Source: Bigelowiella natans CCMP2755 (lineage: Eukaryota; Protista; Cercozoa). Taken from it: a stretch of DNA of 64,000 nt. Positions 3-55,746 of the stretch are shown one piece after another. The notes under the pieces are model-generated. The model ran no database searches and was not told the DNA's origin. It saw only the letters and a program-made list of their open reading frames with translations. The stretch lies in assembly GCA_000320545.1 (NCBI GenBank), contig ADNK01000875.1, positions 186,001 through 250,000 of the forward strand, given 5' to 3'. The position numbers and the translations under genes are program-made. The first letter of the stretch is position 1; every line of letters starts with the position of its first letter.

Positions 3-3000
3 ATTGTCAACAGAATTAACTTCATGCCTTCCGGCGGCATGTCAGGCCACTACTGTGATATGGACTATCTTCAAGACCTGGACGGAAACGGCTACAACGA
101 GATGGTGTACGGCCATTGTAGCGATGCAATTGGAAATTACATCACCGTTGTCTTCATGATGTCCGACGGATTCGGAGCTGACACGAGGCAGAACATGATT
201 ACGATGGTCCTACCGGGAGGCAAGAAACTTAACGGGCGGGCGGTCGCTGCTATTGGAGACATCAACGGCGATGGTATAGAAGACATTGCAGTTTCAGGTC
301 TCAATCAGGCGACTGGCAAAGGCTGTGTGTTCATCTGCTTCTTACAGCGAGTTGGTGCATGTATTTGGGGTCCAGAGCTCAACGCTCCCCGTCATGCGAC
401 TCACGACACCAAGTTCTGGGGGTACTCTCTGGCAGCTCTGGATGACATCAATGGCGACGGGATTCCGGAGGTCGTGGTAGGAGATACCCAGGCCGAGATC
501 GCGAATGCCACTGGGTACATCGAGATTCTCTTCATGCAATCCAATGGTCAATACAGCCGAGCGCACCAAATTGGCCGCTTTGGTGACCAGGCAGATACGC
601 TAGATCTGAGCGTGAGAGACCTATTTGGAACTTCCATCCGTCAGATCGGCGATCTGAATCAAGACTCCACGCTCGACCTTATGGTAGGTGCGCCAGGAGA
701 CGGCTTCAACAACACAGGCGCAGTGTGGATTCTGTTTATGGATGTGGCCAATACAGAAGTTGCTTATACCTATAAGATAGACCAGCATGAGCCATGGCTC
801 AACCTGGTCAATGGCAGCGGCTTTGGTTGGAGCGTCGAAGTGATTGGCGACCTGAATGGTGATTTGATTCAGGATATAGCTGTAGGGGCGCCATTCACAA
901 CTCCGACCCTCGGTGGAACTGAGAACAACGGTGTGGTATATCTGCTGACGCTAGACAAGTCTGGTGGCGTCACGGACAGCAGAAGGGTTCTCCCTGAGTT
1001 CGTGACGGATGACTCACTGTTCTTTGGTCGCAAGGTCAAGGCACAGCCCCGGCATCGTTCGTGCAATAGCCTCCACACAAAGTGTCTGGACAAACGCTCT
1101 GAGTACTACGAGCTAGTGACAACGCAAGGAGGCCAGGCTCACTGGAATATCTTCATTGACATCACACAGACACAAAACTGGTTCTCAGGAGGTTTTGTTG
1201 GAAGACAATTTTCGACACCTTACGGAAAGACCCACTACATCAATAGGCAGTTGAGGCCGAGATTGACTATCACTCACCTGGCCACAAGCACACCTTATAA
1301 CTCTGCGTTTGGCCTGAAGATCAGTTCTACCTTCCTTATCACACACGACGCAAATTCTACGTCGGGCATCCATGATATTGAAATCTCTACGTCCTTGGAA
1401 AGCGACTACAACGTCAACATTCTCACTAACACGATTAACTCGAACTTGCCTGGAACTACGAACCCGTACCATTTCATCCCACATCTGAAGAATACCCTCT
1501 TCAAGACTCCAATTTTCAGACTTTCTCATCCCGAAGTCTATGGTTTGGAGAGTAGGTATATCTTGCAGCCAAACTTCACACTTTCGTTTGAGTACAATAT
1601 GAACGAGACTGCAACCATCGGGGGTGTGCTCGAGAGTTCCATAACGATGAAGTACAAGATCTCTGATGACGTTACCGACTATTTGTACAAGGTTCAAAAC
1701 TTCACGGTGATGCTAAACGATAGCTCCAACGATCACCCTGTGATTCTGTCGCTACCCAAGCACTCCACATTAGAAGACACTGATCTGGTCATGCGGGACC
1801 TCACCATTGTTGACACTGACTTCTATGAGATCTACAAAGACGGTATGATGATGACCAACATCACTGTGGTCAACGGAAAGGTGTCATTGGACGGATTCCT
1901 CGAAGGTCTGTGGTTCATTGAGGCCAACAGCTCGGAGACAAATCCAGAATACGATTGGACCGACCGCTTGGTGTTCAAAGCAGGACTCATACAAACAAAC
2001 AAGGCCCTGCAACAGATGATTTTCCGCCCATCTAAGAATGAGGAGACGGAGGCTAACATCACCATTCATGTTGACGACCAAGGCTTCTCCGGGGTCGGAG
2101 GTCCTAAGCATGCGACAAAGCTCATCACGATTGACATAATACCTGTAAACGATGCGCCTATCATCCAGCATCCACGCATCTTCGAGGACGCAATCGAAGA
2201 TACACCTTTCACTCTGGCAATGGTCACAGTCTCCGATGTCGACATTGGAAACGATGATATGACGTTGCGTCTCTGGGCTAAAGGTGGTTTTGTTCGCCTC
2301 GATATGACCAATAGTTACGCCATCTCGCACCGAGCCCTGTACACAACGTGGAACGACTCGACCTACGATATTCATGCTGTGTCTGGACCGGTTGAGCGGC
2401 TAGTCATAAAGGCCAAAGTGCCAATCTTGAACAATCTACTGAAGTTTGCAGTGCGATTTGAGCCTTATTTCTCCTGGAACTGGGCTTCGCAGGACTACCA
2501 GACTGTCTACATTATTGCAGAGGACTCAGGTAGCTCCGGAGATAGCTGTATATGCCTGGATACCTGCGCAACAGCGGGAGATCGTGTCTGTGACGACGGT
2601 GGACCCGGTTCGCAGTCTGATCATTGCATGCTGGGTTTTGACTGCTCCGATTGCGGCCCAAGCATTCGCTCAGGGGGCGTGGCTTTCAACAAAACTTGCG
2701 GTGGTGCAACATATTACGACGGTCCTAAAATGAATCAAACCACTCGCATCGAGATGCTGGTTAAGGTGGCACCGGTCAACGACGCGCCATACCTGACCGT
2801 ACCTACGATCCGCTTACACAACATGGAGGACTCGCCGACTACCCTAGGGGAAGGCGGAGAGATTATCATTAATGATATTGACCTAAACGAGACCGACAGT
2901 GCTTTGCTCACGGTCATCGTAACAGCACAGTGGGGTCTGATGAACCTGATGGACGCAACCGTTCCTTACTACGAGCCACTCTACACGTGGAGCGATCGAG

Positions 3001-6000
3001 TCAAATTCCAAGCAACTATCGAACAGGCCAACAACATTCTTTCTGGGACTTGTGTGCGAAGCGGCGACAGCGGTGGAGCACCTTGCATCCTCCCTTGGGA
3101 GCACAATAACAAGACGTATAACCATTGCACTTTTGACAATAGAGGCAGGCGCTGGTGTAATACTGAAAATGGTATTGGATTCTGCGACTGCGGTCTTATG
3201 TATAAGGGCCGTCACAACTGGTACGGAAACGATACTATTACTGTTATGGTAGGCGATATGGGCCAGAGCGGCAGTGGCGGCGCTCTCTGGACGAACAAGT
3301 CCTTCACGATGAATGTCAAGAACATTAATGACGCACCGACGCTTTCTGGCCCCGGGAAATTCCTTGGGCAGTACGAGTTCAGTATTCACGAAGATGTTCC
3401 AACTAATATCAAGAATCTGACTGCTGATGATGTGGATGAGTGGTACGGCAAATTCAGCTATAAGCTGAAGGTCTGGGGCGACCACGGCCAACCATCATTC
3501 AATGGTACTACAGCCTATTACATTGAAAAAGCTGCTTCATTGCCTGACATTCAGCAGTGGCTCAAAGACTTGGTGTTCGTGCCAGACCCTGACTTCAACG
3601 GCATGCAGGCAGGATTGCGAATCCTGATTGATGACTACCACGAAACCGACGAGATTTATGTCAACATCGATGTGCTTGCCGTCAATGATATGCCTTTCTT
3701 TAAGGTGAACACGACTAACAACACTCTGGCGCCTCTGGAAGACGTTAACTTCCCAATGTGGATTGCTGTATACGATGTTGATGTTGATGAAACCTTTGGG
3801 GGACTCCTGGAGATTACCATGGAAGCTGGAAATGGCTCCCTAACTCTGCGACAAGAGTGTCTGCAACAGTCCTCATGCGATATTGAGTTCCTCGAGGGCG
3901 ATGGATACGAAAACTCCAGAATTGTTTTCAAGTCATCGAAAAAGTCAGCAAATCTCCTGATGAATGGCACCTTCTACCGAAGCGCTTTGAATTGGTATGG
4001 GACCGACTGGGTATACCTTCACGTTACAGACCATGGTGCATCTGGTGTACTTGCCGGTGTTCAGCAGAGCTCATGGAACATCACAATGAACGTGCAGCCT
4101 GTAGATGACTACATCTTCATCGACCTACCCGAGTATGTATATGCTATTGAGGATGAACTGGCACCGCTCAACCTTACGATCGGCAAGGTGGATCCCGAAC
4201 TTACGCAACCTGTGAAAGTTACACTTGAGGTCATTAACGGCACTCTTCGAGCTCCCGATGTTGGACTACCCGCAAGTTCGACGTTGGTCGTGGAGCGGCG
4301 TGATGATAACCACACGATGGTGCTCCTTGGGCCATGGGATGATGTTGAAAAGCAAATCGAGAGCGTCACGTACCTGTCGCAGATCCACTTTAACAAGCGC
4401 TGCTGCGGGGTAGAGACTCTCAAGATCACCGCAGAGTACAACCGAAGCAGCAACGCTAGCGTGATCTCTCACTATGAGACCGCAACGGTACTCATTACAG
4501 CCGTCAATGACGACCCCGTCATCAACGGGCCGCTCGCTTACACGATCCTTGAGGATACCCTGACGCACTTGAACGACATCTGGGTATTCGATATTGACCA
4601 TAAAGAACTGTTTGGTGGGCTGTTGAACATGTCGATTGAAGTACGTCACGGTATGCTGACGATGGATACGTTCGTGCCTGGAATCCACATGATTGTCCCC
4701 GAGAGGGAGGAAAATTTCATCAACCTCCAAGAGACCCAGACCAAAATAACTGCTCGAAGGCTCTCTTTCACCGGTGTCCAAGAGGACATCAACAAGTTGC
4801 TGGACACTCTCATGTACAAGACAGACTTGCACTGGGACAAGTTCGACAATCTGACGATGAGGATCTCTGATATGGGCAACTATGGAGTGGGAGGAGAGAA
4901 AGTACATGAGGTAATGTATCCTATCACCATCACTCCAATCGATGATCGTCCGTACATCGAAACGACGCCCGCGTTCAAAACGGACGAGGACGTGCCAATT
5001 GATATCCTTGTGAACATCAAGGATGTAGATTCTAGTGTCGGTGGCGTCGAATTCAACATCTCGTGCAGGTTCTGCTTGATTTTTGTGTACGAAAACCAAA
5101 CAGTTTTCGACACAATCACGCAGAACAACAGTACCGGCGTCCTCGTGAGGATCAAAAACTCAGTGACGACAAACAATCTGCCCTTCCACTACATCTACGA
5201 GCCCCGTCAGGACTGGAACTCGTTCATTGCAGGAAACGACACGGTCACCGTCTTGGTTACCAGTGCAGTTACTACAGGAGGCAAAGGCGTCAACACAACC
5301 ACCACAGTGTACGTGGACCCTATCAATGACGCCCCAGAGATCTACAGTATCGTAGACGATCACCAGGATGATCAGTACGACGAATACATCACAATTCCTG
5401 AGGATACGGTACTCATGCTCGAGTTCCTCAGTGTGATCGATGACGATTACTTCGACGTGTACGGAGCTCTCTTGGACGTCAACATTTCCTGCACCTACTG
5501 CACCTTGGTGATGAATCAAACAGCAGGCTTACACGTCCGATCGGGAATTTACGAGAACACCTCGATTCCAACGGGGCAGTTCCTAGGTACGACCATGCCA
5601 ACAATGAACCTCTCCTTCTCTGGAGGACAACGCCCTATCAACGAGGCACTCAGAGGCATTTCGTACATTCCCAGTCCTGACTTCAATGGCCTTGACACCC
5701 TGCGAATCTCCGTTTCTGACCGTGGTAATCATGGTTTTGGGGGAGTCAAAATCACGCACCATGCGGTCACAATTAACCACACCTGGGTGAACGATCGCCC
5801 CAAACTTTTCGGTCCAAACATCACCGGCATTCACATGGCGGTTGGCGAAGAGGATCGAATGATACCAATCGAGGGTATTCGCTTGGAAGACGACGACCAT
5901 GCAGGCTGGTCTCACGGCATGATGGCTGGCAGGCACACCCCCGTCACAACAGGTGACATTACCAGTAAGGAATTGTGCTACCAGAAGGCGCGCGATACCT

Positions 6001-10081: not shown

Positions 10082-11279
10082 CAGTCATGAATCATCGACG
10101 CTTCACGTTTTTAGATAACGCAAGCAACAAATTAATTCTTTAATACTCGTTGCTGCGCTCATATGTAACAATAATAATAATAACAATATTATAGTAATAA
10201 TAGTAATATTAATAAATATAGTAAAAATATAAGTCATAAAAGATCAAACACTCCCCTTTGAGAATAATGAATGATACCTACTTTTCTTTCTCTACTAATA
10301 CCCTTATTATTTTCGTCTTCTTCCCTCGGATTACATTTCTATGTAGAGAATAATATCCAATCATCTCCATCACCCCATTCCGCCCCTTTGCGTAATGATG
10401 ATTGATGATAATCATGGTGATATACTTTTTGCTTTCCATCATTATCACCAATGCTTCTTCATTACAATCTCCGCAAGCAGCAACACTCTTTCTTCTGGGT
10501 CGACTCTAGCACCCGTCACAAATCACAAGAACATTTCCATCGTCTTCTCTTTACGCGACTTTCCTCACAAACTACCCTACCAGTAGCAGAAGTTTCTTGA
10601 CTTCTAGCATCAGAAGCTCTCTCGGATCGGTTGAAAGATTTCTGAGGAATGATCTGGGACATCATCACTCTGAAACTTCGCCGCCGCCGACTGTTTATTC
10701 TGCTTTCGCTTCTTTATTTCTTCTTTAATTCTTAGCAGCCTGCTACTCGGGTATGATGTCTACTACATCACAAGCATAATCACCAAACGGTTCAATTTCG
10801 AAACGGATGGGCGCAATTCTAGCCTAGATATTTCGCAAGTAGTAGGGACAATGCTATAGTATCCTTAAAGTCTTACATCTCCACCACGAATTAATGGTGT
10901 AGGAAGTCGCTTATTTCGCCTTCGTTTTTTCTACTAGAACACCCTCGTGTTCACTAGTATTTGGAAATGCATCATTATTACATTGTGTACGAGGCAACCC
11001 GGGAGAGCGCACCTGGTCCTGCACTATTGAAGCTTCTTTTTCACTTTTCTCGCTTCACTTTGTGCAGAGCATGTCATGGCAATCATCTTCACTTCTACTA
11101 CACAGTACAGGAGTTTTCCAAAGTATGTGTGATAGTTATCTCTGTAACCTTTTTCACCACCTAAAAATATAGAAATTCCATGGCCGTGTGTGCGCCTCCT
11201 GTTCTGGTTCCTTCCCCATGTATAATCTGAAAAGATCAAAATGTGCAACAAATATCTCTCCACATGTAGACATGCGCAA

Positions 11280-11960
11280 TACATGCTCGTGTACATAATT
11301 TACGTGGTATGTGCTAGCTAGCTGGGCATCGCAATGTGTATCTAGCTACATTCGCTAGATTCGCACAATCGCATGTTAATATATATAATAAATATACAGC
11401 GTGTATAACATCTCAGGAGTAGCGTATCGTACGTATACATCGTATTTCTAAGGACATATGATATACTTGTCGCAACTATGCGATGCGATGTAATGTAGGC
11501 AAATTTTATGTTGTTGGTTTAGGGAGCCATATGTATCGTACGCACGCACACAGTGAGCTACCTCTGCATGACAATAGACAAAGTATATATATGATATACA
11601 AGCTAGTAAGACGAAGACAAAGTATGATATATATGTATGATATGCACATTACATATTTCATATACAGCATTACGTATGTCTAGATAGCTATGCTAGTGCG
11701 ATGTCTACAGTTTTAGTATCTGACTTACATAGCTACTACGCTGTATATATTGTATTATGTCTATCATTGGCCGGTAGCAGGGGTGCAGTACACTGGTCAA
11801 ATATTATATGACTTGTTTGCTGTGAGTATCATAGCGCGCCCTTTGCACTGCACTAGTATTGTTGCAAATTTGAGTGCACTGCTGTGTTTATTTGGTGCGA
11901 TGCGCTGCTGATACTGATTTGTGCAAATGGCATTGTTTCCTTGCAATCAACTACTTCAAC
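11280..11960. other. Low-complexity intergenic tract of alternating purine/pyrimidine words (GCTAGCTAGC, CATG, TGCA, TATA) between convergent genes
   Basis: Composition seen directly; no credible ORF. Confidence 0.5.
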
Positions 11961-12037
11961 ATGAATACATAAATGCAAGTAGAAGAAGGAAAAACGGAAC
12001 AGGATAGAGAGCAGAACGCATCATCCGCTGGATTCAA

Positions 12038-13104
12038 TTAAAACATGGTAACGTTGTAATAGTCTGCAGGATCGATAATGGAAGCTCCCCCGAAAAAGTC
12101 AAGCATCCAAATATCTTGAATTTGAAGCTTCTTGACTTTCCAGTTGTGATCAGAAGGCCAAGATTTCATCGGTGGATGACGACTGAACAGAGCACTCTGC
12201 AAGAAATCTATGTGAGACCCGTGACGTGAGGTTAATAACATTTTCACGTGGTTAATACCTTGAATTTTGCCTGCTCATCAGAATCGGTGACCTCTACTAC
12301 TTTTCCACTGAGAACAACCTTGGCACATCTTGGATCTTCAGGGTCCCATCCTTTCTTCGCACAGTACCTGAAGATAATAGACGGTGTGAGGAAAGGAAGA
12401 GTGCTGTCATAGATAGCTTATCACTACCCGATCGAGGCTTCGGAGATGGTGAATGAAACCATTGGATTAGCAGCAATATCCTGCTGCGAAACATCCATTT
12501 CACTGACATAGAAGTAAGGGATCCCTGTAGTGAAGGTCATATCGCCGTCAACGAAGGATTGGACATTTCCGAAAGCAGTGCCTGAGAATAGTAGAAAAAG
12601 GTGTGAACGATGCTTCGGAGTTGGCATGTTTGCTTGTTCTAAATACCGTTGAGATGAACTGAAGTAGTAGCTAGGGTCCCATAAGTAGTATTGTGCACTA
12701 CCCATCTGTGAAATAATCCATGATAAATTTCTGTTCTACCCAATTGCATGGAAGCAACATTTTTTACCGAGCAGTTGCTGCCTTCTTCATCCAAAATGGA
12801 GGGCCATCTTTCTTCTGCGCGATTTCAACACTATCGCAGACAAAGACTCCAGGGGGGAGCTTCTTCGCGTTCTCCTTCTCAAAGCATGAGGAGGGCACAG
12901 CGCCGGCCTTACACCAGGTACACTTTGAGTCCGCGTCACACGATGCTGGGGGAAAGACATGAATGAGATTGTTTCTTCGGTAAATACTCTCACAAATAAA
13001 TATTTCTACTGTAACATACCCTGATCCGAATACTTTGGTTGGCATGAGTCTTGTTGGGCAAAGGCGTTGTTGAAGGCCAGGAGGAAGAGGAGAGGGGTCA
13101 GCAT
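12038..13104 (-). CDS. CREG: CREG-family (split-barrel, PNPOx-like) secreted/lysosomal protein with signal peptide and N-terminal Cys-rich module; exons 13104-13020, 12945-12768, 12705-12647, 12581-12428, 12367-12259, 12196-12038 (247 aa)
   Basis: All five GT-AG introns (60-74 nt) restore the frame; the spliced CDS is 744 nt. CREG hallmarks are present: ARWVVHNTTYGTLAT, GTAFGNVQSFVDG, GIPYFYVS, DPEDPRCAKVVLSG, ALFSRHPPMKSWP, IWMLDFFGG. The N-terminus MLTPLLFLLAFNNAFA is signal-peptide-like. Confidence 0.9.
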
Positions 13105-13199
13105 GGTGCGATGGAGTTTGAGATGCAGTCTGTTTAGTTGAGATAATTCGTTATGTCGTTACATATAATTGTAGGCCAATTATGCATTTTAATCCACAT

Positions 13200-14030
13200 G
13201 GGGTGGTCCAATGATCCGACTGTGACATTTTTGTGCAGCACTTTCTCATTCGTCTTCTTGTCGTACTCGTTACTTCCCCCGAATCTATCCCGAAACTGTT
13301 AGCTATGCTTTATTGGGGTTGCGACAAGTATGTTCCATGTTTCTTTTGCTTTGATGGAGGCCGTTTGGAGCAAGATTGCCTTCGCCCTCAGACGCGACAT
13401 AAGCTCCGCACTGTTCACCAAATCATATCGAACGTGCTCGAACATGGTAGGCGTAGCTTCAGTCAAACATGTTGTTCGGATCTTCCACGCATGCACTAAG
13501 AAATCAAGCAAGGATTTACCAAAAGTTGCTTTGATGTCAACTGCTTGTGGCTGCGGAATCATCGGGAGATGGCTATCTTACAGCACATCAGACTCGCAAA
13601 TTTCCACTTTGCCTCGAAGCAAAGATGGACAGTTACCCGATGGAAAACGAAATAGAAACCAATCGAATTTCCACATCTATGCCCGACCTTAGGCTGATGA
13701 GGGACCAATACAAATGATTGAAAAACTCCTCTCTGTCGCGACGTCTTCAATTGCATTAAGAAGGTCAAAACTTAGTGTTTTGAAACTTGAAGAGTAGGTT
13801 CACGCACAGGGACAATATGTATAGCCCTTAGTTCCTCCAGCAAGCAAAAGGAATCTGTTTTCTCTTGTGGAATGTACATCACCAAAGCAGTGTTAAAAAA
13901 AAACGAATTTGAGAAATGATCAAAGCTTGGAAAGCCAATGTGTGTGACTTCACACCAAGCACCCACAACCTCTAGACCTTCACTTGTTGTAAACAACATT
14001 GTTCGATCGGTGGCCACGTATCGACATCAA
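13200..14030 (-). pseudogene. Degraded coding-like sequence (fragmented ORFs 13299-13562, 13559-13768, 13772-14017), origin unknown (TE, viral or gene remnant)
   Basis: Protein-like ORF pieces separated by stops and frame changes, with no clean splice sites or recognisable family. It abuts the TpA-depleted tract. Confidence 0.3.
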
Positions 14031-14039
14031 CATGCACAA

Positions 14040-15060
14040 ATGGAGCATATTTATCGTCCAATAGTCTAGATTACTGACTGCATGCACATGCAGACGGCAC
14101 ATCTAGACATATCGCATCACATACTAGCATGGGATCCAAGCTAAGCCGTCTCTGACAGATCTACGCAGACGATGCGGTACGGAGCGACGCATTGTGTTGA
14201 CCGTGTATGATGAACAGTGTGCACATGTCTAAGCAAGATACAATGCGTACATACATTATATCACGTCTGCAGTCATCGATCAATGATCGCATCCATCTAG
14301 CCACATGCGTCGCTCGACATCGATCTGTCCGATCCGCCGATGCGATGCTGTGATGTACGTGTGCTTACATCACATTGCACGCACACGCTGCCAGACTACA
14401 GACAACAAAGCTAGAAAGTGCATTTTGCATCATGCATGCGTCTGATGCACACAGAACATGATCGGCGCTTGTCGGCAACATCTTTGGCTAGCGACACAGT
14501 CGAGCGCTAGCGAGATCGCATGACAGTCATCATGCGCATCATTGATCATCGCACAGCACCACGCGTACATGTTGTGGGATCGGCGCACACCTAGCGTAGC
14601 TAGCTAGATGCACCATGCTAGCATTGTAGCATGTGGACATCGCGCTAGCTGTGGCGGTGTGTCACGATCACATCATCATGCAGCACGCTAGCACGTGTGT
14701 GGTGCGTTTGCTTGAAAATTGAGTGTGATGTAGTCCACGCATGCCAGCATGGTCATTTGTCAAGCATTCATTTTCACGCAATTTGCCGATCCGCGGCCAC
14801 CTAGCCACGCATGGCATGTCTTGTCTAGCTACACATTAACTGTGTAGTGTGAAGTGTGGACACAGCCATGCACAGTTGTGCGAGACGTTTGCATTGCTAG
14901 ATTGGACACAGGCATGTTGCACACATCTAGACAAACATGCACACATGCACGTACATCACATTGCACGCCTGTGTAGGTCTAGATCGCATGCGTTACAGTT
15001 GCACACATCTGCTACCGATGCATCGCATATCTAGATACATGTGCAGACACATGTCAGATG
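14040..15060. other. CA/TG-rich, CTAG-enriched non-coding tract (putative hypermutated repeat)
   Basis: In 14281-14940 I count 24 TpA: 14 are CTAG and 6 more are CTA or TAG. CATG, TGCA, CACA and TGTG words are abundant. Confidence 0.7.
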
Positions 15061-15201
15061 TGCCTACTTGTAGCGCCACACAAAGCCTTGCATGTGTATA
15101 AACAACACAGACATAGCTGCATGGTGCACAGTTTTAATTTGTTACAACGTACGCTCGTCGTATGTGTACATGCATGTGTGTATAAATATGTACATATGTG
15201 T

Positions 15202-15205
<4 letters not shown>

Positions 15206-15242
<37 letters not shown>

Positions 15243-15388
15243 TGTGTGTGTGTGTGTGTGTGTACATAATACACGTTTACACATGTACATTGTGTGCCAT
15301 CACGCTCGTCGATTACATTAGCTACACAAATATGCAGCTATAGCTATGTGCATATGTGTCATCACGCTCAACCTATATTCACATATTT

Positions 15389-15467
<79 letters not shown>

Positions 15468-15601: not shown

Positions 15602-18600
15602 CTATTGGATGCAAAGTTCCTTGAAATTGCGAACAGTTTCCTTCATTGACTTTGTGTTGCACTCGGACATGGCCCACCGCTGCCTTGAAGAGTCGTGGAG
15701 GGTTATTTTAAAACAATTTTCGTTGTGGTCCTCCAGCTCCTCCATCGTAAGCGGCGTGGAGACAAGTCTATGCATAACCACCAAGGATGCCAAGTTTCTT
15801 CTGGATCGCCTCGCCGTGCTCATACTGATCAGCCACCGCACTTGCATGTGGTGTAGCGTCTGCAGTGCGGACCGCCTTACATCTGCGGAGTGGTTGTGGA
15901 CACCGCCCTCATCCTCATCCTCCTCCTCATCTGCTACATCAGGGGCGGAGTATTTCCTCCATCCATCGCTAACATCATTATGATCTCTTTTGCAATCATG
16001 ACTACAGTTGTCATCATCATCGTCGTTGCCGTCCTCCATGTCATCATCGCTGCCTGTAAAGCCGAGATACTGGAGCACTGACAACGATTGGTTGGGATCA
16101 GCCTTCATAATCTCGGCGAGAGCTAGCTCTGCAGAGTCGCGGACATGTGCATCCTCATCATTGCATACCTGTAGAATGGGCTTGAGCGCGTGTTCTGCAA
16201 TCTCTGGAATATTCTTCACCACTTCGCCAAGGGCAGCGGCAGCCACCTTCCTTACGTCGTGATCCTCATCGCTGCAAGCTCTACCCAGGCTCTGCAGAAC
16301 CGTGGAAGCTAAGGATGTTTTTGCTTTTGCTATTTCCGACATTGCAAACACCGCTCCACGCCTTACCAACCACTCCTCGCTGCTATCATATGCTGTGATG
16401 AGTTTCTTAAGGGAATCCTTGGCCCGAGAAAGGTCCGCCTTCGTCGCTACCCCGAATGCGTGCACAGCTGCGATCCATGCGCTCTTATCCTGCTCTTTCA
16501 TGCACGCAGCAAGGAGGGTTCTGAGGACGAGCGGACACTTGGCTGGCTCCATGGATATAACCTGTGCAATCGAAGTCATCGCTGCACGCCGTACCTCCAC
16601 CTCTTCGTCATGGCTGCAGGTCAGCAGCGGGCGAACAACATCTGAGGCTTGGGAGGGGTCAATCTGGACGATCCTTCCCAGGGCATCCACTGCTAATACT
16701 CGCACATCGACATCCTCGTCGGAGCAGGCCTGGATAAGCGGCTGCATAACTGCTATTGCTTGGTAGGGATCGACTTGCACAACATCGACGAGGGCTGGAA
16801 CGGCGCTCCTCCTTACCCTCCAATCTTCATCCTTGCATGCCATTACGAGAGCTCGTCGCATAGGCTGTGCCAATACGGAGTGGCGCTTGACAGAATCGCC
16901 AAAAGCTGCAACGGCCAGCTTACGCACATGCCAGTCCTCGTCCATTCCAGCGGCTATCAGGCACTTCAGGGCCGCATGCTTCTCAAATCCCTCCTTTTTG
17001 TAGTCATTATTGTTGAATGACGAGGATGATGATGACACCTCGATTACCTCAGGGAGTGCAGGAATAGCTCCACGCCTGATTCTCCAATCCTTATCCCTAC
17101 AGGCCGCGAGTAACGGCTTTAGCACAACCTTAGCGTGTGACTTATCTGCCTTAAGCACGCCGGTTATCGCCACAATCGCGGACCATCGAATATCCTTACG
17201 ATCCTCATACTCCTCCTCCTCCTCCTCCTCCTCCTCTTCTTCTTCGCTACATGTATGGGGTGTTGCAGCTATGATCAAGGGTTGGAGGACAAGGCTTGCT
17301 TGGGTTTTGTCTGCCTTCACCACACGCGTGATGGTAGCCACCGCGATGCGTCGCAATCGCCAGTCCTTGCACGCAGACACAAGTGGTTTAAGCGCTGCAG
17401 ACACGTACAGAGGATTGTGCATTACGATCCTTCCTACAGAGGCCATCGCTAGAATCTTCACCTCATTCACTTTGTCGTCACACGCATCAATGAGGCTGTT
17501 GAATAATTGCTTTTTCTCAGGACTCAGCAGACTCCCTGGCTCATTTACCCTTGCGACTGCTGGCAGTACCGCCACGGCCCCTCGCCGGCGGGTCCATTCC
17601 GCATCCTTAGTGTAGGCGAGAAGCGTTGGGAAGATTCTACGGACGACCTTGAAGTAATGTACCTCCACAATATCCCCGAATGCGTGCACAGAACTCAGCC
17701 AAACCTGTCGCTCTTCATCAGCACAACCGTTTATCAGGCCCTTAAGACAAGCAAATGCATGGAGCGGTGCGGCGACGCCGACCTTCCTCACCGCCTGTAC
17801 CGCACAGGAGCGCACATCTGGGTCCGTATCGTTGAGTAGCAAGGCGATCAAGGGCCCTACAGCCTTCCTCGCCACCTCAGGGTAAGCGTTCACGAGCTCG
17901 CCTAGCGCATGGGCGGAGGCGATGCGGACGTTCTCGGAATGGTGGGAGCAGCCGGGGATCCATATTGAGGTGAATGAATCTAGCCGTAGTAAGCTCGGTA
18001 ACACAGCCACAGCCTCAACGACGGTGCGATGGATGCGGAAGTCGATCTCAGGCAGTAACTCTGCTCTTGCCACAGCTCTGAGGCCTGCCTCGGCCCATGA
18101 TTTGAGGGTAATAAGATCCTTTGACATGGACTTATACTCCTCAAACTTACCACTGGAGAGCCCGAGACACTCATGGATGCACTTGAGTTTCAGCACGAGA
18201 TGCTGTAGGCCTACAATCTCAATCGGGGGGGTATCGATTACGCCTACGATCCTGTCGAACCGCGTCCAAGTGCTCCCCTCGAGAACACGGAACAGTTCTC
18301 CAGCCATGAACTGCAGTATACGCCGCCGTGTGAAGTTATATTTATGACGCTTAATGAATTCCCGCGCTTCCTTCCCCTTCTCCTCGTCACCGCACGTCAG
18401 TAGGCGCGCGAGGGCCACGCCAGCAAAGAATTCTTTGTAGAGCGTATGTACCACATGAGGCTCCGCGCCGCCCTGATCCGCATCTTCGTCATACCGGACG
18501 AACCCGCAGTTCTCAAGCATCGCTCGGATGTACGAGGACTTTATTTTGCTCTCTGCACCCTGAATTGTCTTAAGGACCTCATGGTAGCCGTCGAGCTGGC

Positions 18601-21600
18601 GCATGGAGAGGTAACCTAACGTCTGGAGGAAAATCTCCATGTCATCCTCACAGAGCTCTTCACCAAACAGATCCCTTCTAATCCGCAGGTTTGCCCATCT
18701 ATCTCTAAAAATTCTATAGAAGATCGCTGAGAGGCTTTCCATATTCATCAATTGCCTTGTTCCTCTTCTTCTCCTTCTCCTTCTTCTTCTTCTTCCACTA
18801 CCACCATTCCTGCTGGTGCTGCTAGTATTATTCTTCCCGAGACTGCTGCTGCCACTAGCTACAGTAGAGGGTATACTAGTCCTAATGCTGCTGTTGCTGC
18901 TGCTACTCTGGCTACTACTGACTGTTGCGATCATGATAGCGCTGCCATCATCCTTGCCATTGCTCTGCGGTTGAAAAAGGTCTACCTCGCAGAGTGCACA
19001 TATCATCTCCAGCTGAAAAGGCACGCTGGCCATCATCTGGATGTGCGAATTCTTGTTGATGAAGGAAAGCACCTGTGCGGTGGTCGCCATATTTGTCGTA
19101 GCCTCGTCAAGGTTATCCTCAGTTTTTATCCTCGCTTCTGCTACAGTCGTAGGTTTAGCCTCAACTAGCTCCTCGTGAAAATACTTCTGAACAAAGGCCC
19201 GGATTGATTTGCCAGAGAATTTGCCAATGCTTACGTGCAGATCGACTGCTCCCTCCTCTATGTGGTTGTAACCCTCGTCCTCTGTAATAGAGGTCCAGAG
19301 TCGATGTACGTTCTTGCCACACTTCTCTGCCTCTGACAGCAGATGACCCACGCCGTGCCTGCACTCGTCTAGTCCATCCAAGACCAGCAACACCTTGAAT
19401 AGATGATTGTCGATTTGGCTCTGGACTTCCCTCTTCAAGCAACTTCTCCTTTGCACGTCTTCCTCGTCCATCTCCTTGTTGCCTTTCTTCTTTTCACTAG
19501 TCCTGCTCAAAGATGAATTCCTTGTCGTCGTATTCCCTTTGCGAGGAATGAGCAGCAGGTTTACGATAGCTTCGGAGAGGCTCTTCCACTGAGGCTTGAG
19601 CTTCCTGACGGGAATCATGTACACGGCATCGAATACGTCTCTTGCCCATTCTTGGATGGCCCAACGATACACTAGCCGTGTACACAGGGTCGTCTTGCCG
19701 CTTCCAGCAGGGCCCTTAAGGAGCACGCATCGAGGAATGCCCTTATCACCGTTAGGGAGCTGTATGGGATTGAAAATATCCTCCACTCGCAAAGTCGTCT
19801 GCGAGTTGGTAACGCTTTCGTACAGACCGAGCAGCTCGGCACTTTCGTTCCCATGATTCTCCACCTCGCTTCGAGGGCTCTTCAGAACACGTAATACGAG
19901 CTCATCGGTCATCTTGCTCATATTTTTCCTTCTCTTGTAGTAATAATTGTTGGGGACGTCTCTCTTGAGGACGGGCTCCACGTATCCATCGGCGAAGGTG
20001 CGTTTCCGCCCCGACATCGACGGCATGTACTTGCAAGCCTTCTGATAGTGCCGGCTTAGCAGTCCTTCTATCTCCTCGGAGCTGCGAGCGTCCTCCTCTC
20101 GCTGCTTATGCAGCTCTCTCTCCTTTTGGAACTTCTTCTTCACCTCCTTGGTGACCTTGCTATACAGTGTAACACCATCGCCTCCTCCAGCAGGCTGTTT
20201 CTTCCTCTGAGTTTCCTCTCGCATTTGCTTGATCATTTTCACTTTTGTCCTCTGTGAGAGCTTTCCTATCCAGCTTAGGACTAAAGTAGCTGGGGTTTCC
20301 CCCCGAACATTGCAGGCGGCGCAGAAAAAGAAGATGTTTTTTTTCCTGCCCTTCCCTGAATTCCGCGCATCCGTGATGCATGTATCTAGGTTAATGGTGG
20401 CCATGGATGCGACCTGTTTCTTGCCCTCGATTGATATCACGGCAAGGGCCGTCAACATTGCGTGCACTAAATCCTTGTCATACTTCCATCCTGGTCATTA
20501 TTAATCATCCACAGAATTTTGGTATAATTAGTAGATATGATGCAACAATTTTTTCTTTCATAATTGTCCTTTGAAAAATATGCTTAGCATCATAACAATC
20601 TTACTTGTGCAAGGTATCATCAGCATCTGTTGTTGTATTTATATTAATAATTATATGGATATGAATGTCGCTACCTGCATCCTCTCCGAACCTCCTCTCG
20701 ATCCCTAGCAGCGACGCGATCCAAGTGACCGCCCGGACGCGTACCTTTGGCGTCTTTCCACGTAGAGCAATACTTGTCAGTTGCTGCACAACGGCGTAGC
20801 GCATGGCCATTATCCCGTCGGCTGTGGAATTGCTCTTATCTGGACGATCAATGTAATCTTCTCCACCGCCGTCATTGGTATTCTCTTTATCATCATCTCT
20901 CTCCTCCTCCTCCTCCTCCTCCTCCTCTCCAAGTCCTGGGAGATTCTGTAATCCAACTTCGAAATACTTGATAAAATATTCCTGTCCTTTTTTCTCCTCA
21001 AGACTGCAGGCTGCAGCATATGCCATGCTTTTAAGCCACTCATACCATTTCTTCCCTTTCTCATTTGGTGGATCCTTGTTGTTGCTGCATCCTCCTAAAA
21101 GTAGCTTGAGATCCTTCTCAATATCATCCGAATCCTTTCCATCAGAGAATGGACAAAGAGCATACACTACGTCGCTGATTCCCTCTTCGACCTCAAAAAG
21201 ATTATTTTCCTCTCGGAAGAAGCTATCATCCATTATCCTCGCACCTTTATGTGTAGGATTCTTCTTACCTGGAGCCTCTAAGAGTCTCTTGTTCAGCTCG
21301 AGGCTCTTCGCCAGTAGAGTGGCCTGAAAGTGATAGGGATAATACTCCGACTTTCTCACAACACGCAGCTTTTCCTTGAACCTCGCGTAAAGACTGTCTT
21401 TCTTCTCGAGTGACCAGCTGTCTTCGTGAACCTGGCGCATAATTATGAGTGCCTGGCACGTGGATATTAGCATATCCCGACTGCGAATATACGTCTTGGC
21501 TATGTAGCGTGAAGGATCGTCGGGTAGCCTCTCAAGCATCACCTGGCACACATCGTGCAGCATGTAAATATTATGGCCGAACAACAATGGATCTAGTGCA

Positions 21601-22103
21601 CGTAGCACATGCTTCGTTCCCAGTCCAATCTTTGACTCTGAGTCACCGCTGTCGAGCTTCGTCCTCCACGTCTCAAAGTAACCATGTAATAAATCTGCCT
21701 GCCGGGCCTCTGCATTCAGTCGCGCCTGCGCTAGACGGCTGTACTCAATGATGTCAGTCTCATCAATCTTTGAGAGCGCCATCTTGCTAAAGTAATATGT
21801 GTACTCCTGGAACAGTCGCTGATAGATGACCTTGTCAGTCTGGGCACTAGTCTTGCTGTTGAGAGTTGCGACGAGGCCTGAGGTACTACTAATATTATTC
21901 AAGGCATCTTGAATATCCTGCAAGGAACTAGTTCCTAAAACCTGTGGGTGAGAAGCGAAGAGGTGGTTTTTACGAAGGAATTAATGATCAACATGTAATT
22001 ATAATTCCATATGCATTCACCTGACGAATGAGAGATAATAATTTCGAAAATTTATTCTTCGGAAGTATACCTGTGAAGATACTCTTGTATTTTTTGAATC
22101 CAT
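15602..22103 (-). CDS. NACHT NTPase + C-terminal HEAT repeats (NLR-like STAND protein), ~2,062 aa; exons 22103-22071, 21941-20675, 20490-15602
   Basis: Walker A GPAGSGKTT, Walker B VLLVLDGLDE, helical-domain motif MASVPFQLEMIC and winged-helix-like HTLYKEFFAG are present. Many HEAT units follow (e.g. ACKDEDWRVRRSAVPAL, ACSDEDVDVRVLAVDALG). Intron phases 0 and 1 match and the CDS is 6,189 nt. The first exon is the least certain part. Confidence 0.88.
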
Positions 22104-24857: not shown

Positions 24858-25605
24858 TCGATAGTAACAACCGACTCCATGACTTTCCATAATTTTCAAT
24901 TACAGTGCAATGAACATTGTGTATTCTTAACGATAAGGCTGGAAAACAAATAACCAGTTGTGTCGATGTGATAATAATGTGTGATACATAATCAGCAGGA
25001 ATCTGTAAAAAGAAGAATTCTGCCTTCATTCCAGCCACAGACAAGATGCCAACACCTTTGGATCTGAATTTAAAGAATCAAAGAAATTTCATTGTAAACC
25101 AATGTAACCTCGCGGAGATGCCAAAATTGAATGGAGATCTTCAGATGTTCCATGAGTCCGAAACTAACACTACTGGTATCGAAGTGAAGCGGAAGGAAGA
25201 GCAGCTTATGGAGGATTTAAATTTGGCAATAGCTAAGAAAAAACTTGATCTCGAGGGATCAAAATCAATTACGCACGATTGATGGTCTATCCAAGTCCGA
25301 TCGCATGAAATGCAGAAATTCACAAATACAATGATCTGCCAGCTAGTTTGATGCCATTTAGTTCAGCTTTATTTGTGAATATGGCGTATAGTATGTAATC
25401 TTTTCAATAATATATACGTGTAAAAATGATCTTACACGATATCAATATATCTGTTTTGAATTCTTTGTGTCCATGGAGCATATAACACGCAACACCAATT
25501 ATCGCTTCTCAATGGCACATGTAGCGTGCTAGCGTGTGGTAGATGTACATGTACAAGATCAATTGCTCTTAGCTATGCAATACGGAAATATATTAATATG
25601 CACAT

Positions 25606-25606
<1 letters not shown>

Positions 25607-25657
<51 letters not shown>
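25607..25657. repeat. (CA)n(TA)n compound microsatellite in a convergent intergenic gap
   Basis: Seen directly. Confidence 0.95.
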
Positions 25658-35366: not shown

Positions 35367-35479
35367 TGGACTATATCGTAAGCATCAGCTTTTGCGTGAC
35401 AGAGAGTATCTAATCTCGAAAATCTATTTTAGTCTCATGAGCATAAATACTAGCAGGTCATACCCAGAATAGTTAAATC

Positions 35480-36130
35480 AGAGCATCACTACATGCATAT
35501 GGTGTCATAATAGCACCTTAAGAGCACGCAACTAGACGACGCAAGCTAGGGCAAACAAGCTATAATCATAGCATGACAGTGTAGGATTTAAACATCATCA
35601 TGCTGCACGTGTGATTGCTAGCAGCACATATAAATAAATTACAAAAAAGTGCGTAGAACAATATAGTCACATATTTTCACTTGATTTATATTTCGGAATT
35701 TAAAAGGCTAGAAGGGTTCACAAAGCTCCACTATGCTGCGCGTGCGCATGCTAACCACTCGATCAACTACAGCTGCTATGCTAGTATGGTGATCACAAAT
35801 CGCCATCGATCATGAAACTAACAACGTTCGCTGCAATGAATGAATAAACTTGGTGATTGTGGCATGATCATTCTAGCATTGTGCGATAGTATTATGACAG
35901 CACAGAATACAACTCAAGCAGGAACCCGCATGAAATAATACAATAGATATTGCATTGTGTCAGCACCGTGTCTAGATGTTACGCTCTAGCGGTGCTCCCA
36001 GAATATCAAGTACGCATACACATAGATTTACTATCACATGTCGTTCCCGTTATACTCGTATCGTAGTTTTTAATAAGTGGAAAACATGACTCTGCGACAG
36101 AGATGACATTCGCACTTAGATATGCTAGTG
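35480..36130. other. Intergenic CATG/TGCA/CTAG-rich tract between the convergent SNARE and LENG8-like genes
   Basis: Same word usage as the 14-15 kb tract but weaker; not quantified. Confidence 0.35.
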
Positions 36131-36646
36131 ATTAAGTAGCACGTTAATTTTGGACAATATATCAATGACGACGAGGTAGTACGACGATGATGATCTAGAA
36201 GGATGCAATCGAGTAGAATACTATCACAAATAGGAGGGATAACAAAGCAGCTTTAATTTGCGATAGAACGATTCTCCACCATACCACTGCAATTATTGAT
36301 AGTGCAAGCTACTTGTGGTGGCAAGCCGAATTACCACATTTTGCGTATGTACTATTTCAGTCAGAGTAGCTCAGATGTTCGAAGCACATTCAACTATCTC
36401 ATGGATTTTAATCATAATCATCATCATCATCATTGTGGCGGCATCATGAGTTATTCGAATGCACCCGTAGTCCGCCCTTTCTCACTTTGTCTTCATCGTC
36501 CTCCTGGAATTAAAAAAAAGAGAAGATTCGGAGGAGGAGGAGGAGGAGGAGGAGGAGAAGAGGAAAAGTGGTTGATGACAATCACTTTAAAATGCAACGA
36601 AAATGATCCACACTATCCTGTATTATAACATCGATAGTGTTCATCA

Positions 36647-42019: not shown

Positions 42020-45000
42020 ATGATACCAAACGTTGGGAGGGATATACAGGCACGCCCAAGGGAGGGCAGGGCACCTATAAAGCTCGACTATTTGTTCGGG
42101 CTGCAGACCACCGTGAATAGCAATATTCACTACATTGATGAAGCTGAGGTAGCGAAACACAACTTTGTTAAACTCTTTATGTAAATGATCCCAGGATACC
42201 TTCTTCGATAGGATTCTTGGGTTAAAATTATATTTGCATTCATAGAGTGTGCCAAAAATAAATATTCAAATCTGCATCTCGAATACATTCGTGCAATAGG
42301 AGCGGCTTAACTTGCTTTGGGATCACGGCATGATATGATGAGACATGCAGATCCACAGAACCTAACTATGTTGTGTCTGAATCAAATAGGTGGTGTACCC
42401 GTGCGGGCACAACGTAATCGTTTATGATACGGAGAAAAGGACCCAAAAGTTCATTCATAACCTTTCGAATCTTGGCTCTGGTGGGATATCAGCGATGGCA
42501 ACTGGGAGCGGTATAAAAGGAAAGTTACTCGCGGTTGCGGAAAGAGGAACTGAAAAGAAATCTCCACAGATTACAGTGTACGATTTAGAAACTAGGAAAA
42601 AACGTAGGCCCTCTTTCACGCCGGACCAGCAGTCAGCGGATATAATCAGTATCGCCTTTTCGCCAGATGGTCAAAATCTTCTGACTCTTGGCGGAGCTCC
42701 GGACTGGGTGCTTGTGAATTGGAATTGGGCAAAAGGGAGAGCAACACACAAAGCCAAAATCTCGAATCCTACGGGTGCACAGATTTATCAATGTTCCTTC
42801 TGTCCCACAGACCCTTGGTGCGTTTGCGTGTCGGGTGATGGGATTTTGAAGTTCCTTCGCGCTGAGATGAGCGAGTTTCGCGCTATTAGATACAATTTGG
42901 GTAATCGGGAACCACAGAACTATCTCTGCCATGCGTGGGTCGACGTCAGATTGCTTGTCGGGACAGATACGGTTTGTATTCAATGCCTTTCCTCCTAGTT
43001 CAAAAGAAACGTTAGTCAACGATGTATCTGAAGAACTCTCTACCACTCTCTCAATTATTTATATGTATCCCTTTGTTTTTAGGGCGACATATTGGTGTTC
43101 GTGAATGCTGAGTATCGTGGAGTTTTGGACTCCTCGCCTTCCAACGGGGAATCAATCACTTGCCTTGCTACTTACTCCAAAGGGTTTGTTGCGGGTTGTG
43201 ACCAAGCATTGCTGTACGTATTTGAAAGAGATGAGAAGAAGATGTATAAGCAGACCCGATCGTTCCAGATAGATGGAAGCTATAAAAGTATTAAAAATGT
43301 CGCGATAAGCCCCACTGAGGATAATGTGGCCTGCACCCTTGAGAATAGCCAGGCCTACGTTCTGAGCATTTCGAATAGTGACATCCAGGTACCAGAGGAT
43401 ATGAGCTTTGAACCACTTGCCCTGCCTTTCCATGACAGCGCCATAACGGGACTCGACACTTGTCTGAGGAAACCTTTGGTAGCGACTTGCGGTCTCGACA
43501 AAAGCGTCAGAGTGTGGAACTACTTGGAGAAGACGATCGAATGCATTCGATTCTTCAAAGACGAGCCCTACAGCGTCTCGCTCCACCCATCTGGATTTCA
43601 TATTCTGGTTGGATTTTCCAACAATCTTTGCCTCTTCAATGTCCTCATGGATGAGATCAAGCTCTGTAAAGAGTTTGAGATAAAATCGTGCAATGAATGC
43701 CACTTCAGCAACGGGGGGCACCTCTTCGCTGCGGCCGACGGTTCGGACATCCTGATATACCAAACTTACACATGCGAGAAGATTGCAAAACTCTCAGGGC
43801 ACACAGGTAAGGTGACCTCTATAAATTGGGCAGAAAACGATAGGGCGCTCTTCTCTTCAGGCGTCGACGGCTCAATTTTTAGCTGGAATGTAAGAGCATG
43901 GAACAAGCTGTACGATCACAACCAGAAAGGTTGCAACTACACCTGCGTGCAGGGTGCTCCCGATAAGCGTATCTTTGCTGTTGGCTCCGACCGTCGTCTA
44001 AAGCTAGTTAGTGAGAAGGAGGAGGATACTGTGAGTTCGCCAGAGATGAAGTTTTCGATCTCGCAGCTTACGACCTCTCCAGCCCAACGACTGCTTTTTG
44101 GGGGCTCGACGCGCGGGTTCATTGCAGTAGCGCAGATGGACTTGGAGAATGGGATAGTGTATTCCACTACCTGCCATGAGGGCCGTTGTACTCGCATGCG
44201 CATTTCGGCAGACTCTAAGTATCTCTTCACCGTCGCAGAGGACGGTAATTTAGCTATGTTTGAGATCCGTGATCTGGAAAAGAAGAAGCAAAAGCAAGAG
44301 AAGACTAAGGAAGTTGGGCGGCTACCATGGTCAGATGATATCCTCGTATCGCGCAAGAACCTAGAGTCAAAGCTGAAGATGATGACTGAATTGAAATCGA
44401 AAGTCGAGGAGCTTCAGCATCAGAACCAGGTGCAGCTAGAGCAGCGAAATACAATCTACAAGAAGAAGATGGGGGAGGTCGAGAAAAAGTTCCTCTCCGA
44501 GCTGATGCTTGATGAGAAGCGCTTTAAGGATTTGCAGGCGGAGAAATCTACACTCTCGATGACGTTTGAGAAGAAGATGTTCGCCATGAAGGAGCTCCAC
44601 GAGAAGAAAATCGAAAAACTAAAGGAGCACCACTCCCAGAAGATGACGACTGAGAAGGAAAGAATGGATGATTTGGAGGAAAAGATGACGAAGTCTGCTG
44701 CCCAGTGGACCCTTCAGCTCGAAGAACTGCAACAGCGTTATGAGTCTGAGCTCAGGAGATTGGCCGTGGATCAGGAAGATGAGATTCAAGCCGCCAATGT
44801 TAAGAGAACGAAGGCTCTCTATGAAAAGGGTGAGGTGCAAAAGGACTTCAGGGAGACGGAGAAATTGATGGAGGACGAGACAACTTATGAGTTTGAAGAC
44901 CTCAAGATCAAGTACGATAAGCGCCTTGTCGAGGAGCAGAAACTGACTGTCTCGCTGAAGGATCAGAATGCAATCCTCCGCCGGCAGTTCAACAAGCTCC

Positions 45001-46034
45001 GGGTCAAGATTAAAACAAATGATACTGAGCTCGAAGACAAGACAAAGCTCAAGGAGAACCGCAAACAGCGGATAAAGAATTTGCAAGGCGATATCGAGTC
45101 TCACAAGAATGAAATAGAAGATCGTGAAACAACAATCGTTGAGAAGGAAAAGACGATTCAAGACCTGAGGAAAAAGAACCAAGAGCTAGAGAAATTTAAG
45201 TTTGTTCTGGATTACAAAATATCTGAGCTCAAGAGTCAGAACGCGCCCCGCGAGAAAGAATCTAAGTCTTACGTCGCACAACTCGCTGAGATGTCGCAAG
45301 AGGTAAGGAAGTACGAAATCAAGAATTCCAACCTGAAGCTGGGTGTGGAGGATTGTCAGCAAAAGCTGGAGGGCGTCGGCAAGTCTATCGACAAGCAGCA
45401 GAAGGAGATCAATGGCGTGCTCCACACTAAGCATAAGATTCAGGTCGAGCTCAAAGAGCTCAGCAAGATAACAGATTACAAAGAGCGCAAGTCCTTTGTA
45501 AAGTCTTTACACATGAGATATTCCCGTCCGGAGGCAAACCAAAAGAAGAAGAAAGCAGAGTCGAACCCAGATGGCACCAGCAAAGAATATATACGCAACC
45601 GAACCTATCTAGAGAAGACGGTAGAATCCCTCAAGCGCCAGATTAAGAAAGACGTCAGCGCTAACAAACGGGACTACGACAGAATTATTAGAGAGAATGT
45701 TATTCTTGTCAGGGAAATTAACACATTGCGTCGGGAATTTCAGACAAGCGCTGAGACAATTAAGATCAAGGAAATTCGTGCGGAGAAGAAAAGGCGTGAG
45801 CGACAGAAAAATGCGATGTCTAGATCGGGTACAGTTTCAAGGTCAGAGCAGGCAAAATCTCAAGATAACAGTGAGGACACAAAGAGGCAGATAGAGGTTC
45901 AGCAGGAGCAAATTTTGAATTTAAAACAACAACTCGAAGAGTTACTAGAGCAAGAACGGATACAGCAGAGTGAGGAACAGATGCAAATTCGCCCAGGATC
46001 TGCGCAAAAACTTCCCCCAGTTTCACGGCCGTGA
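42020..46034 (+). CDS. CFAP57: Cilia- and flagella-associated protein 57 (WD40 + long coiled coil), ~1,220 aa; exons 42020-42148, 42390-42971, 43083-46034
   Basis: Motifs: YLFGLQTTVNSNIHYIDEAE-VVYPCGHN, ITGLDTCLRKPLVATCGLDKSVRVWNY, SVSLHPSGFHILVGF, LRKKNQELEKFKFVLDYKISELK and RIIRENVILVREINTLRRE. Both introns are phase 0 GT-AG. Confidence 0.93.
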
Positions 46035-46539: not shown

Positions 46540-47900
46540 GCAAAGCATCGGGCCATGCAGTAACAACAAGCCTGTCAATGGACAGGAGGAAGAATGCACA
46601 CAAAAAACAAGCCTTGTGGAACACATCACTCAACCTGCAAGGAAAAATGAAAAGAAAGGAACGTGGCAAGTGCTTGGGATTGTGGTTTGACGAAAGATTG
46701 ACTTTCGAAAAGCACGCCCTTTTCGTGCATCTGAAGCTGCAGAAAAAGAGAAGATTCTTGCTCAGGCTGTGCTCCACCCGATCACACATGCCATTCGATT
46801 CAACGTGAGAACAAAGTTTTGTGACACATGGTTCACAGTCACAAGCAGACATGTCGCACCCATGTGGAGGTCCCGTGAAAACCCAAAAGTGAAGCGGCTG
46901 GATTCCATGGAATCACAAACACTGAAAAGAGTGCTGGGATCACCAGCATCCATTTCCAATGACACACCCCATGCACTAGCGACAACATTGCCACCACGTC
47001 ATCGCACACAAGTTCAATGCACCAAAGCATGGTTGCGAGTTGCGAACCAATGCATGGGTGAATGAAAATGACGGCAACGGTCACGTGGCAGAAGAAGAAG
47101 TGCTCAATTGGAGCTCTTTCGGATGCCATGTTGAATCTTCACTGGAACACAAATGACATGACACAACTAGGTCGTGGAACAGAGTGTCCTTGCACCGCCG
47201 ACTCAGTTTGATCACAACCAAATTGCTTGGAGCGGAACACTCCACAATGCGTGCCACAAACAAGACACCAAAAAAGAAATTGAACACACACAGCAAAGTG
47301 ATCATGCGGACCGCTGCATCTGACTTCAAAATGAACTGGTGCCAAGAGGGAACAAAGGCCATGCATTTGAAGAAACTTGGTTTCATGCCTGGCTCTCGCA
47401 CAACAGGAATCACATTGAAGCTGCCAAGTGTCGCCACATCATGGATGCGCGCCATCTGTGGTGTTGGCAACCTTGGAACTTTTGTCTTGCTGTCCAGAGG
47501 ACAACGCACAGAATTGAAAGCAATGTGCGACACATGCAACACATTGCAAGACATGGACCACATTCTGCAATGCAGGAAATGCGGACCACAGAGACTCAGA
47601 ATCAACAAACAACTGACGGCGATCATGGATCGCAACGATGAAACTACGCGTCTCACAACCACAGAAAAATTGACTCGCAAAGCTGCGCGCAAAGCACGAC
47701 ATGCTGGACCAAATCACAATGCATTTTCATGCATGCAACATGTGACCAAGGAAACAAACAGATTCAATTTGAGCGCTGCAGCCGCTGCTTTCCACAGCTA
47801 CATTGGGATGACCATTGAAAAAATTTGAACATTTCATTGCATCCGTCTCACATGTACATGTGTGCATGCCTGGATTCACAATGATGTGTGTGCATGTAGC
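46540..47900 (+). mobile_element. 5'-truncated, frameshifted non-LTR (LINE) retrotransposon remnant: end of the RT domain, downstream helical region and CCHC knuckle; heavily TpA-depleted
   Basis: KCLGLWFDERLTFEKH corresponds to the RT motif KYLG..D..LTF..H. LDSMESQTLKRVLGSP and the knuckle CDTCNTLQDMDHILQC follow. The coding pieces lie in different frames (46536-46808, 46769-47065, 47184-47828). No target-site duplication was found. Confidence 0.8.

Positions 47901-55706: not shown

Positions 55707-55746
<40 letters not shown>

Follow-up and report, generated by a model that had tools for sequence, protein, structure and literature searches.

In fungi, repeat-induced point mutation (RIP) destroys mobile DNA through transitions that are localised and context-biased and can extend into its flanks; the changes are C to T, create TpA and need a duplication. 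The closest system to the one considered here was described in Bigelowiella natans itself, where mutation-accumulation lines revealed a TpA to TpG/CpA hypermutation (Mettrop et al., bioRxiv 10.64898/2026.01.13.699255). According to the main text of that preprint, the mutation rate of integrated giant-virus and virophage regions is raised about 1000-fold, nearly all of the changes being TpA to TpG/CpA; TpA-depleted transposon and reverse-transcriptase genes and 124 depleted clusters are present; the depletion criteria are a Rho of at most 0.43 for TpA and of at least 1.52 for CpA+TpG; and an ADAT2-like deaminase is proposed for the process. A flanking rule is absent from that main text, which uses none of the words 'context', 'trinucleotide' or 'flanking'; its figures or supplements may hold one. 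Our literature search found only this report on the TpA to TpG/CpA process.

The window studied here is a stretch of 64,000 nucleotides, and its CFAP57 gene (43083–46034) is 100% identical to B. natans JGI Bigna1/37070 across the matched 64%. Within it we analysed a tract that would resemble the targets of fungal RIP in carrying localised, context-biased changes but would differ in their direction, likely TA to CA or TG, by which TpA is removed; whereas RIP requires duplication, the tract is single-copy at 80% identity. The published giant-virus region is also single-copy, unlike RIP targets (Mettrop et al.). The tract shares with the published system the species and probably the TpA to TpG/CpA change on both strands, but the main text of the preprint deals with viral insertions of 25–186 kb at the level of dinucleotides only, whereas the tract is 0.7 kb long, single-copy and non-coding. 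On balance we favour the view that the tract was swept by the published hypermutation, its rate lowered several-fold or more, and not to zero, after a C. The process itself is already known and the flank bias is likely a new detail.

Composition of the tract

The tract and the principal segments used for comparison are as follows.

14261–14993, no strand: likely TpA-converted patch in single-copy intergenic DNA, with only 2 A/T-flanked TA in 733 bp
14281–14940, no strand: the tract under study, with 24 TpA (14 CTAG, 6 CTAC/GTAG, 2 GTAC, 2 A/T-flanked) and CA+TG of 154
11200–11950, no strand: TA-rich control segment, 8 CTAG against 2.7 in shuffles
35370–36200, no strand: TA-rich control segment, 11 CTAG against 3.0 in shuffles

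A recount gave exactly the figures of the original prediction (24 TpA, with 14 in CTAG, two in other CTA, four in other TAG and four in the remaining contexts), which resolve into 14 CTAG, 2 CTAC, 4 GTAG, 2 GTAC, 1 TTAC and 1 TTAA. The CTAG count compares with 0.9 in 2000 dinucleotide shuffles of the tract, none of which reached 14. Total TpA is not depleted, the observed/expected ratio (O/E) of 0.62 being gene-like (0.55–0.72 in three coding regions, against 0.08 in a LINE copy described below). The only missing class is TpA flanked by A or T, of which there are two against about 49 expected from the 207 in four control intergenic segments (2775 bp, picked by eye, with CTAG varying from 1.9 to 13 per kb). 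These two, at 14366 and 14837, are the only ones across 14261–14993, which makes this gap in A/T-flanked TA the longest of the window apart from the LINE.

The original prediction described the rest of the tract as the products of TATA (CATG, TGCA, CACA and TGTG). CA+TG is indeed raised, at 154 where control intergenic DNA would give 107, but CG (43 against 28) and GC (71 against 44–56) are both high and AA/TT is low (48 against 85–93). Conversion of TA gives neither this surplus nor this deficit, so the tract is not purely made of TA products. There is also an excess of CTGT/ACAG (12 against 5), which a block by C at position -2 (positions here being counted from the adenine of TA) does not predict. 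CpG O/E is 0.99, without the CpG deficit of the LINE copy. In a Rho-type test the tract gives 1.87 for CpA+TpG and 0.62 for TpA (strand-symmetrised O/E, which differs from the formula of Mettrop et al.); it therefore stays above the published TpA cut-off of 0.43, because CTAG persists. A screen based on total TpA would accordingly overlook conversion of host DNA in CTAG-rich places.

An exact 17-bp direct repeat lies near the ends of the patch (14366–14382 and 14952–14968) without extended similarity around it, and the folding of the tract is not unusual (z = -1.49, 20 shuffles).

Genomic setting and copy number

The surroundings of the patch comprise the following features.

14040–14260, no strand: left flank, alternating DNA with CTAG in which TA is kept in A/T contexts; sharp edge near 14260
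14994–15160, no strand: right flank, with a gradual return of A/T-flanked TA and CA/TG still high
15181–15465, no strand: (TA)n and (TG)n microsatellites adjoining the patch, TA kept (Tandem Repeats Finder)
15602–20494, minus strand: NACHT and HEAT-repeat open reading frame, 1630 amino acids from stop to stop, TpA O/E 0.72, with the tract 3' of it

The tract also lies upstream of a minus-strand gene with an apparent start near 13105. The NACHT and HEAT-repeat frame, possibly an immune-type gene, is preceded by a frame of 459 amino acids (20601–21980) without a Pfam match. The stretch 13240–13900 looks coding, with open frames of 87 (13314–13574) and 129 amino acids, and one ChIP run covers it at slightly greater depth; neither frame has a Pfam match, and the shorter is also unmatched among longer proteins. 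Compound (CA/TG)n-(TA)n microsatellites occur at 15181–15465, 25601–25657 and 55682–55743, and one might speculate that such arrays could originate by TA conversion followed by slippage.

The tract is real and single-copy at an 80% identity threshold. Positions 11000–15150 are fully present in twenty DNA runs, which are not independent, since any of them may be of the source strain. Two raw-read runs cover 13150–15170 with 489 and 445 reads at even depth and with no alternative letters, which shows that the tract is not an assembly artefact; as a check for ongoing activity, the same two runs contain no sequence variants in the tract. No paralogue of 13150–15170 was found in reads or contigs at 80% identity, and two contig sets each gave one partial match of 37 bp, to CTAG-rich DNA of a similar kind at another place. 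According to Tandem Repeats Finder there is no array in 14281–14940, only short look-alikes of 12–28 nt being present, and the tandem or satellite unit that the original prediction had set up as its refutation is thus not what lies here. Nor did the tract yield a repeat, an open reading frame match or a terminal repeat at 80% identity that would mark it as foreign DNA, and no element was found in the patch. When CA and TG were collapsed to TA and the rest of the window was searched for paralogues, the only matches were low-complexity TA runs, while the LINE used as a positive control was recovered. As these searches found neither an unconverted allele nor an unconverted paralogue, no change in the tract is polarised and we infer its conversion.

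Polarised changes in a LINE copy

Polarised changes are available at a second site in the window.

46577–47853, plus strand: copy of a non-LTR retrotransposon, truncated at its 5' end and sharing 83% identity with the intact element L001; of 23 aligned TA, 19 are converted; two CTAG and two CTAC survive
47854–47922, no strand: DNA just beyond the 3' end of the LINE, CA/TG-rich and with no A/T-flanked TA; the loose ends of paralogues are TA-rich here

L001 is the DNA of an intact LINE, P0121 (78% identical to the copy), which carries an endonuclease and a reverse transcriptase and is a relative rather than the direct parent of the window copy. Of the 23 TA in L001, 11 have become TG and 8 CA in the window copy, three are kept and one has changed otherwise. 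This agrees with the earlier suggestion of a TA to CA/TG process at 46.5–47.8 kb, the process published for B. natans, and on recount the four TpA of the copy were again all CTA, two of them in CTAG. By the same strand-symmetrised O/E the copy falls within both published limits (TpA 0.08, CpA+TpG 1.82) and, as a transposon, is a foreign-DNA target. The conversion likely spilled some 70 bp beyond it (47854–47922), into the LINE tail or the host flank.

All 14 TA that lack a 5' C or 3' G in L001 are converted, against five of the eight that have one, the other three being kept (Fisher p = 0.036, calculated by hand from small counts). TTAA was converted in 3 of 3 cases, and GTAC at both L001 sites and, by the majority of paralogues among the matches listed, at a third. 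Two of the three CTAG of L001 have become CTGG (at 46900 and 47706) and the third has changed otherwise; a GTAG has become GCAG at 47779. These three changes at C/G flanks are 3 of the 19 conversions in the LINE. Among the matches listed (40 of 374), most contigs and reads of paralogues have the TA form at both 47706 and 47779, and at 47706 an A is present in 18 of 18 contigs of run X5 and in 178 of the 201 reads on the plus strand in X23. A count of 4/10 against 0/16 (p = 0.014) was set aside in favour of the one from L001 alone, since it adds sites taken from the matches listed (40 of 374) and one site chosen as a survivor.

The commonest double change is the CA/TG doublet exchange (23), as expected if two copies convert one TA independently; scorable flanks carry a 5' C in 2 of 17 and a 3' G in 1 of 19 (3 of 36 in total). 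Part of these doublets may stem from CpG decay. CpG O/E is 0.63 in the copy, and there are a few differences between CG and TG/CA relative to the paralogues, in both directions. A derivation of the KCLG of the copy from KYLG was dropped, as KCLG is also found in the intact element.

Native CTAG in intergenic DNA

CTAG is not peculiar to the tract. TA-rich control segments contain 23–24 CTAG against 8.8 when shuffled (8 against 2.7, 2 against 0.5, 2 against 1.2, 11 against 3.0 and 1 against 1.4), an over-representation of about 3-fold in the two best controls with one control against the trend, and CTAG is under-represented in three genes. The host flank of L001 (4973–5162) is (GCTA)n-like, with 11 CTAG in 190 bp; there, 11 of 17 TA are CTAG, close to unconverted ATA and TAC. 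Since unconverted intergenic DNA is enriched in CTAG, its abundance alone does not lend the process seen in the LINE the independent support that had been claimed for the tract, and the 14-fold excess is better read as native enrichment combined with loss of other TA.

These data raise the alternative that the tract was never hypermutated and that native intergenic DNA, alternating and rich in GCTAG, simply reaches an extreme here. Its gene-like TpA O/E, the CTAG enrichment of the two best controls and of the L001 host flank, the excess of CG and GC that conversion does not explain, and the failure to find an element or paralogue all fit such an origin. We nevertheless consider it unlikely. 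TA without a C or G flank is kept at 40–88 per kb in the four controls and at 6 per kb in the tract; of 576 sliding windows, and leaving aside the LINE, none has less A/T-flanked TA or more CA+TG than the tract; and in the simulations described below an unmutated model is the worst, by 9–50 log units even relative to a model without context.

Flanking bases and protection of TA

We counted xTA:xTG on both strands in the tract and in the four control intergenic segments (2.8 kb). ATA:ATG was 0:63 in the tract against 206:173 in the controls (p = 9e-20), GTA:GTG 11:49 against 115:98 (p = 8e-7) and TTA:TTG 3:25 against 91:109 (p = 3e-4), whereas CTA:CTG, at 34:17 against 121:70, was unchanged (p = 0.74). 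A bound that needs no controls points the same way: with 14 CTAG and 2 CCAG+CTGG in the tract, conversion can have reached no more than 2 of 16 CTAG. The proposal that a 5' C blocks mutation is supported in so far as CTA persists where ATA, GTA and TTA collapse; in its strict form it also predicts survival of CTAA and CTAT, yet CTAC/GTAG to CTAW/WTAG is 6:0 in the tract against 23:50 in the controls.

Simulated conversion of the controls raised CA+TG from 107 to 161 (154 observed) and the trinucleotide correlation from 0.52 to 0.84–0.89. The poorest fit in each of the five control sets was that of the unmutated model, followed by the no-context model. On the question left by the original prediction, whether C at -2 or G at +1 protects the adenine, the fits lean towards C, which did better in four of the five sets. 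A YTAR model was worse than C at -2 in all five, CTAA/TTAG being absent from the tract and CTAC/GTAG kept, and both the +1 G and YTAR models were rejected for their poorer fit to the tract. Two rules gave the best fits, one graded by the base at -2 (C 0, G about 0.25) and the other with G/C at both flanks; they lay 0.4–6 log units apart, the latter ahead in four of five sets; on pooled controls the values were -62.9 for both flanks, -65.4 for the graded rule and -68.3 for pure -2 C.

Rather than C at -2, G/C pairs on both sides of TA (STAS) might therefore protect against the same mutator, for example through less breathing or base flipping. This account has the best fit in those four sets, the disappearance of all CTAW/WTAG, and the survivors themselves in its favour, 22 of 24 in the tract and 4 of 4 in the LINE being STAS against 58 of 265 TA in the controls (p = 9e-12). 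GTAC, which it should protect, was however converted at both L001 sites, at the third by paralogue majority among the matches listed, and in two of ten recent events among intact LINE copies, and the survival of STAS is inflated by GTAC and CTAC regenerated from TATA runs. From the tract by itself the two rules are indistinguishable, but the GTAC conversions among the LINE copies speak for the graded rule specific to C, and we regard protection by both flanks as a minority possibility.

The strict form of the C rule, in which a 5' C blocks mutation fully and CTAG is immune, draws on the bound of at most 2 of 16 tract CTAG converted and on a best-fit residual rate of 0 at -2 C in the tract simulations. 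Absolute immunity is contradicted by the changes from CTAG and GTAG in the LINE copy at 46900, 47706 and 47779, of which 47706 and 47779 are conversions of an adenine preceded by C; ordinary background transitions are possible at single sites, and even so we give the strict form almost no credence.

Those same LINE conversions of CTAG would suit a mutator without any flank preference, CTAG being kept instead by selection, protein cover, base modification or (GCTA)n slippage. There are also 19 GCTAG/CTAGC matches and a short TAGC run at 14597–14608, and the enrichment of CTAG in intergenic DNA suggests a role for it. Against this, the survivors in the dead reading frame of the LINE are also all CTA, CTAC and GTAG persist too, and CTG products are not raised (25.8 against 25.2 per kb), which makes this reading improbable. 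The likely picture, drawn from one tract and one LINE copy, is the known process with a graded flank bias, in which C before TA slows conversion, and without an absolute rule.

A possible course of events

On the favoured graded reading, the tract would have started as TA-rich, purine-pyrimidine alternating, GCTAG-containing DNA, as is typical of intergenic regions here. Strand-by-strand A to G change (equivalently T to C, the two being the same event in double-stranded sequence) at TpA would then have acted on a patch of 0.7 kb, hitting the adenine on either strand and yielding TG or CA. The rate would depend on the base at -2 in the order A,T > G > C, and from this order follows a survival of CTAG (C on both strands) > CTAC/GTAG > GTAC > any A/T flank, with CTAC and GTAC presumably replenished as TATA runs convert. 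The LINE copy would have received a larger dose, at which CTAG began to be consumed too.

The chemistry may, following the published hypothesis, be deamination of adenine to inosine by a TadA/ADAT-like enzyme; no enzyme gene that could be a deaminase candidate was identified in the window. Likeness to TadA and ADAT2/3 lies in the A to I change, read as A to G, and in the strong preference for U/T at -1 (PMC10027721, PMC9643335). These are RNA enzymes, however, and the portions of the two articles consulted do not mention an avoidance of C at -2; there, TadA is reported to prefer UACG (PMC10027721) and ADAT2/3 to act independently of sequence (PMC9643335). The published candidate therefore does not predict an aversion to C at -2, which would offer a useful test of it. 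The LINE events show no preference for C at +1. The flank signature could serve as a cheap fingerprint for candidate enzymes, for example Bn78255. A broader and distinctly tentative idea is that an enzyme that edits DNA, with a D-T-A signature, is the mutator, and that it fires also on short single-copy host intergenic patches, without a repeat or virus as trigger, and whose long low-level action might have given rise to the CTAG/CATG/TGCA-rich intergenic DNA.

The LINE family beyond the window

Near-identical intact LINE copies show 12 amino-acid differences, each of them due to an A:T to G:C change, and 10 of the 12 fall at TpA; the -2 base of these ten events is A in 5, G in 4, T in 1 and C in none, the absence of C not being significant (p = 0.24). 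A cluster of such copies (P0121, P0125, P0127, P0129, P0130, P0133) comes from environmental data, with three of the changes in adjacent codons of P0133, a sign that the process has recently been active, in clusters, outside culture as well. Searches for LINE relatives gave none in viral_contigs or genome_contigs and one of 41 candidate stretches in metagenome_contigs; two loci in viral_contigs with an 18-base LINE pattern (L002, L003) look like chance matches. The JGI gene models P0122 and P0123 of B. natans terminate in a 3' fragment of a related LINE (55–58% identical), which is probably mis-joined to host genes. L001 itself is TA-poorer in its 3' third (24 TA in 1262 bp at 3711–4972, against 125 in 2240 bp at 1471–3710) with the reading frame kept, as if tolerated conversions had been absorbed by the master lineage.
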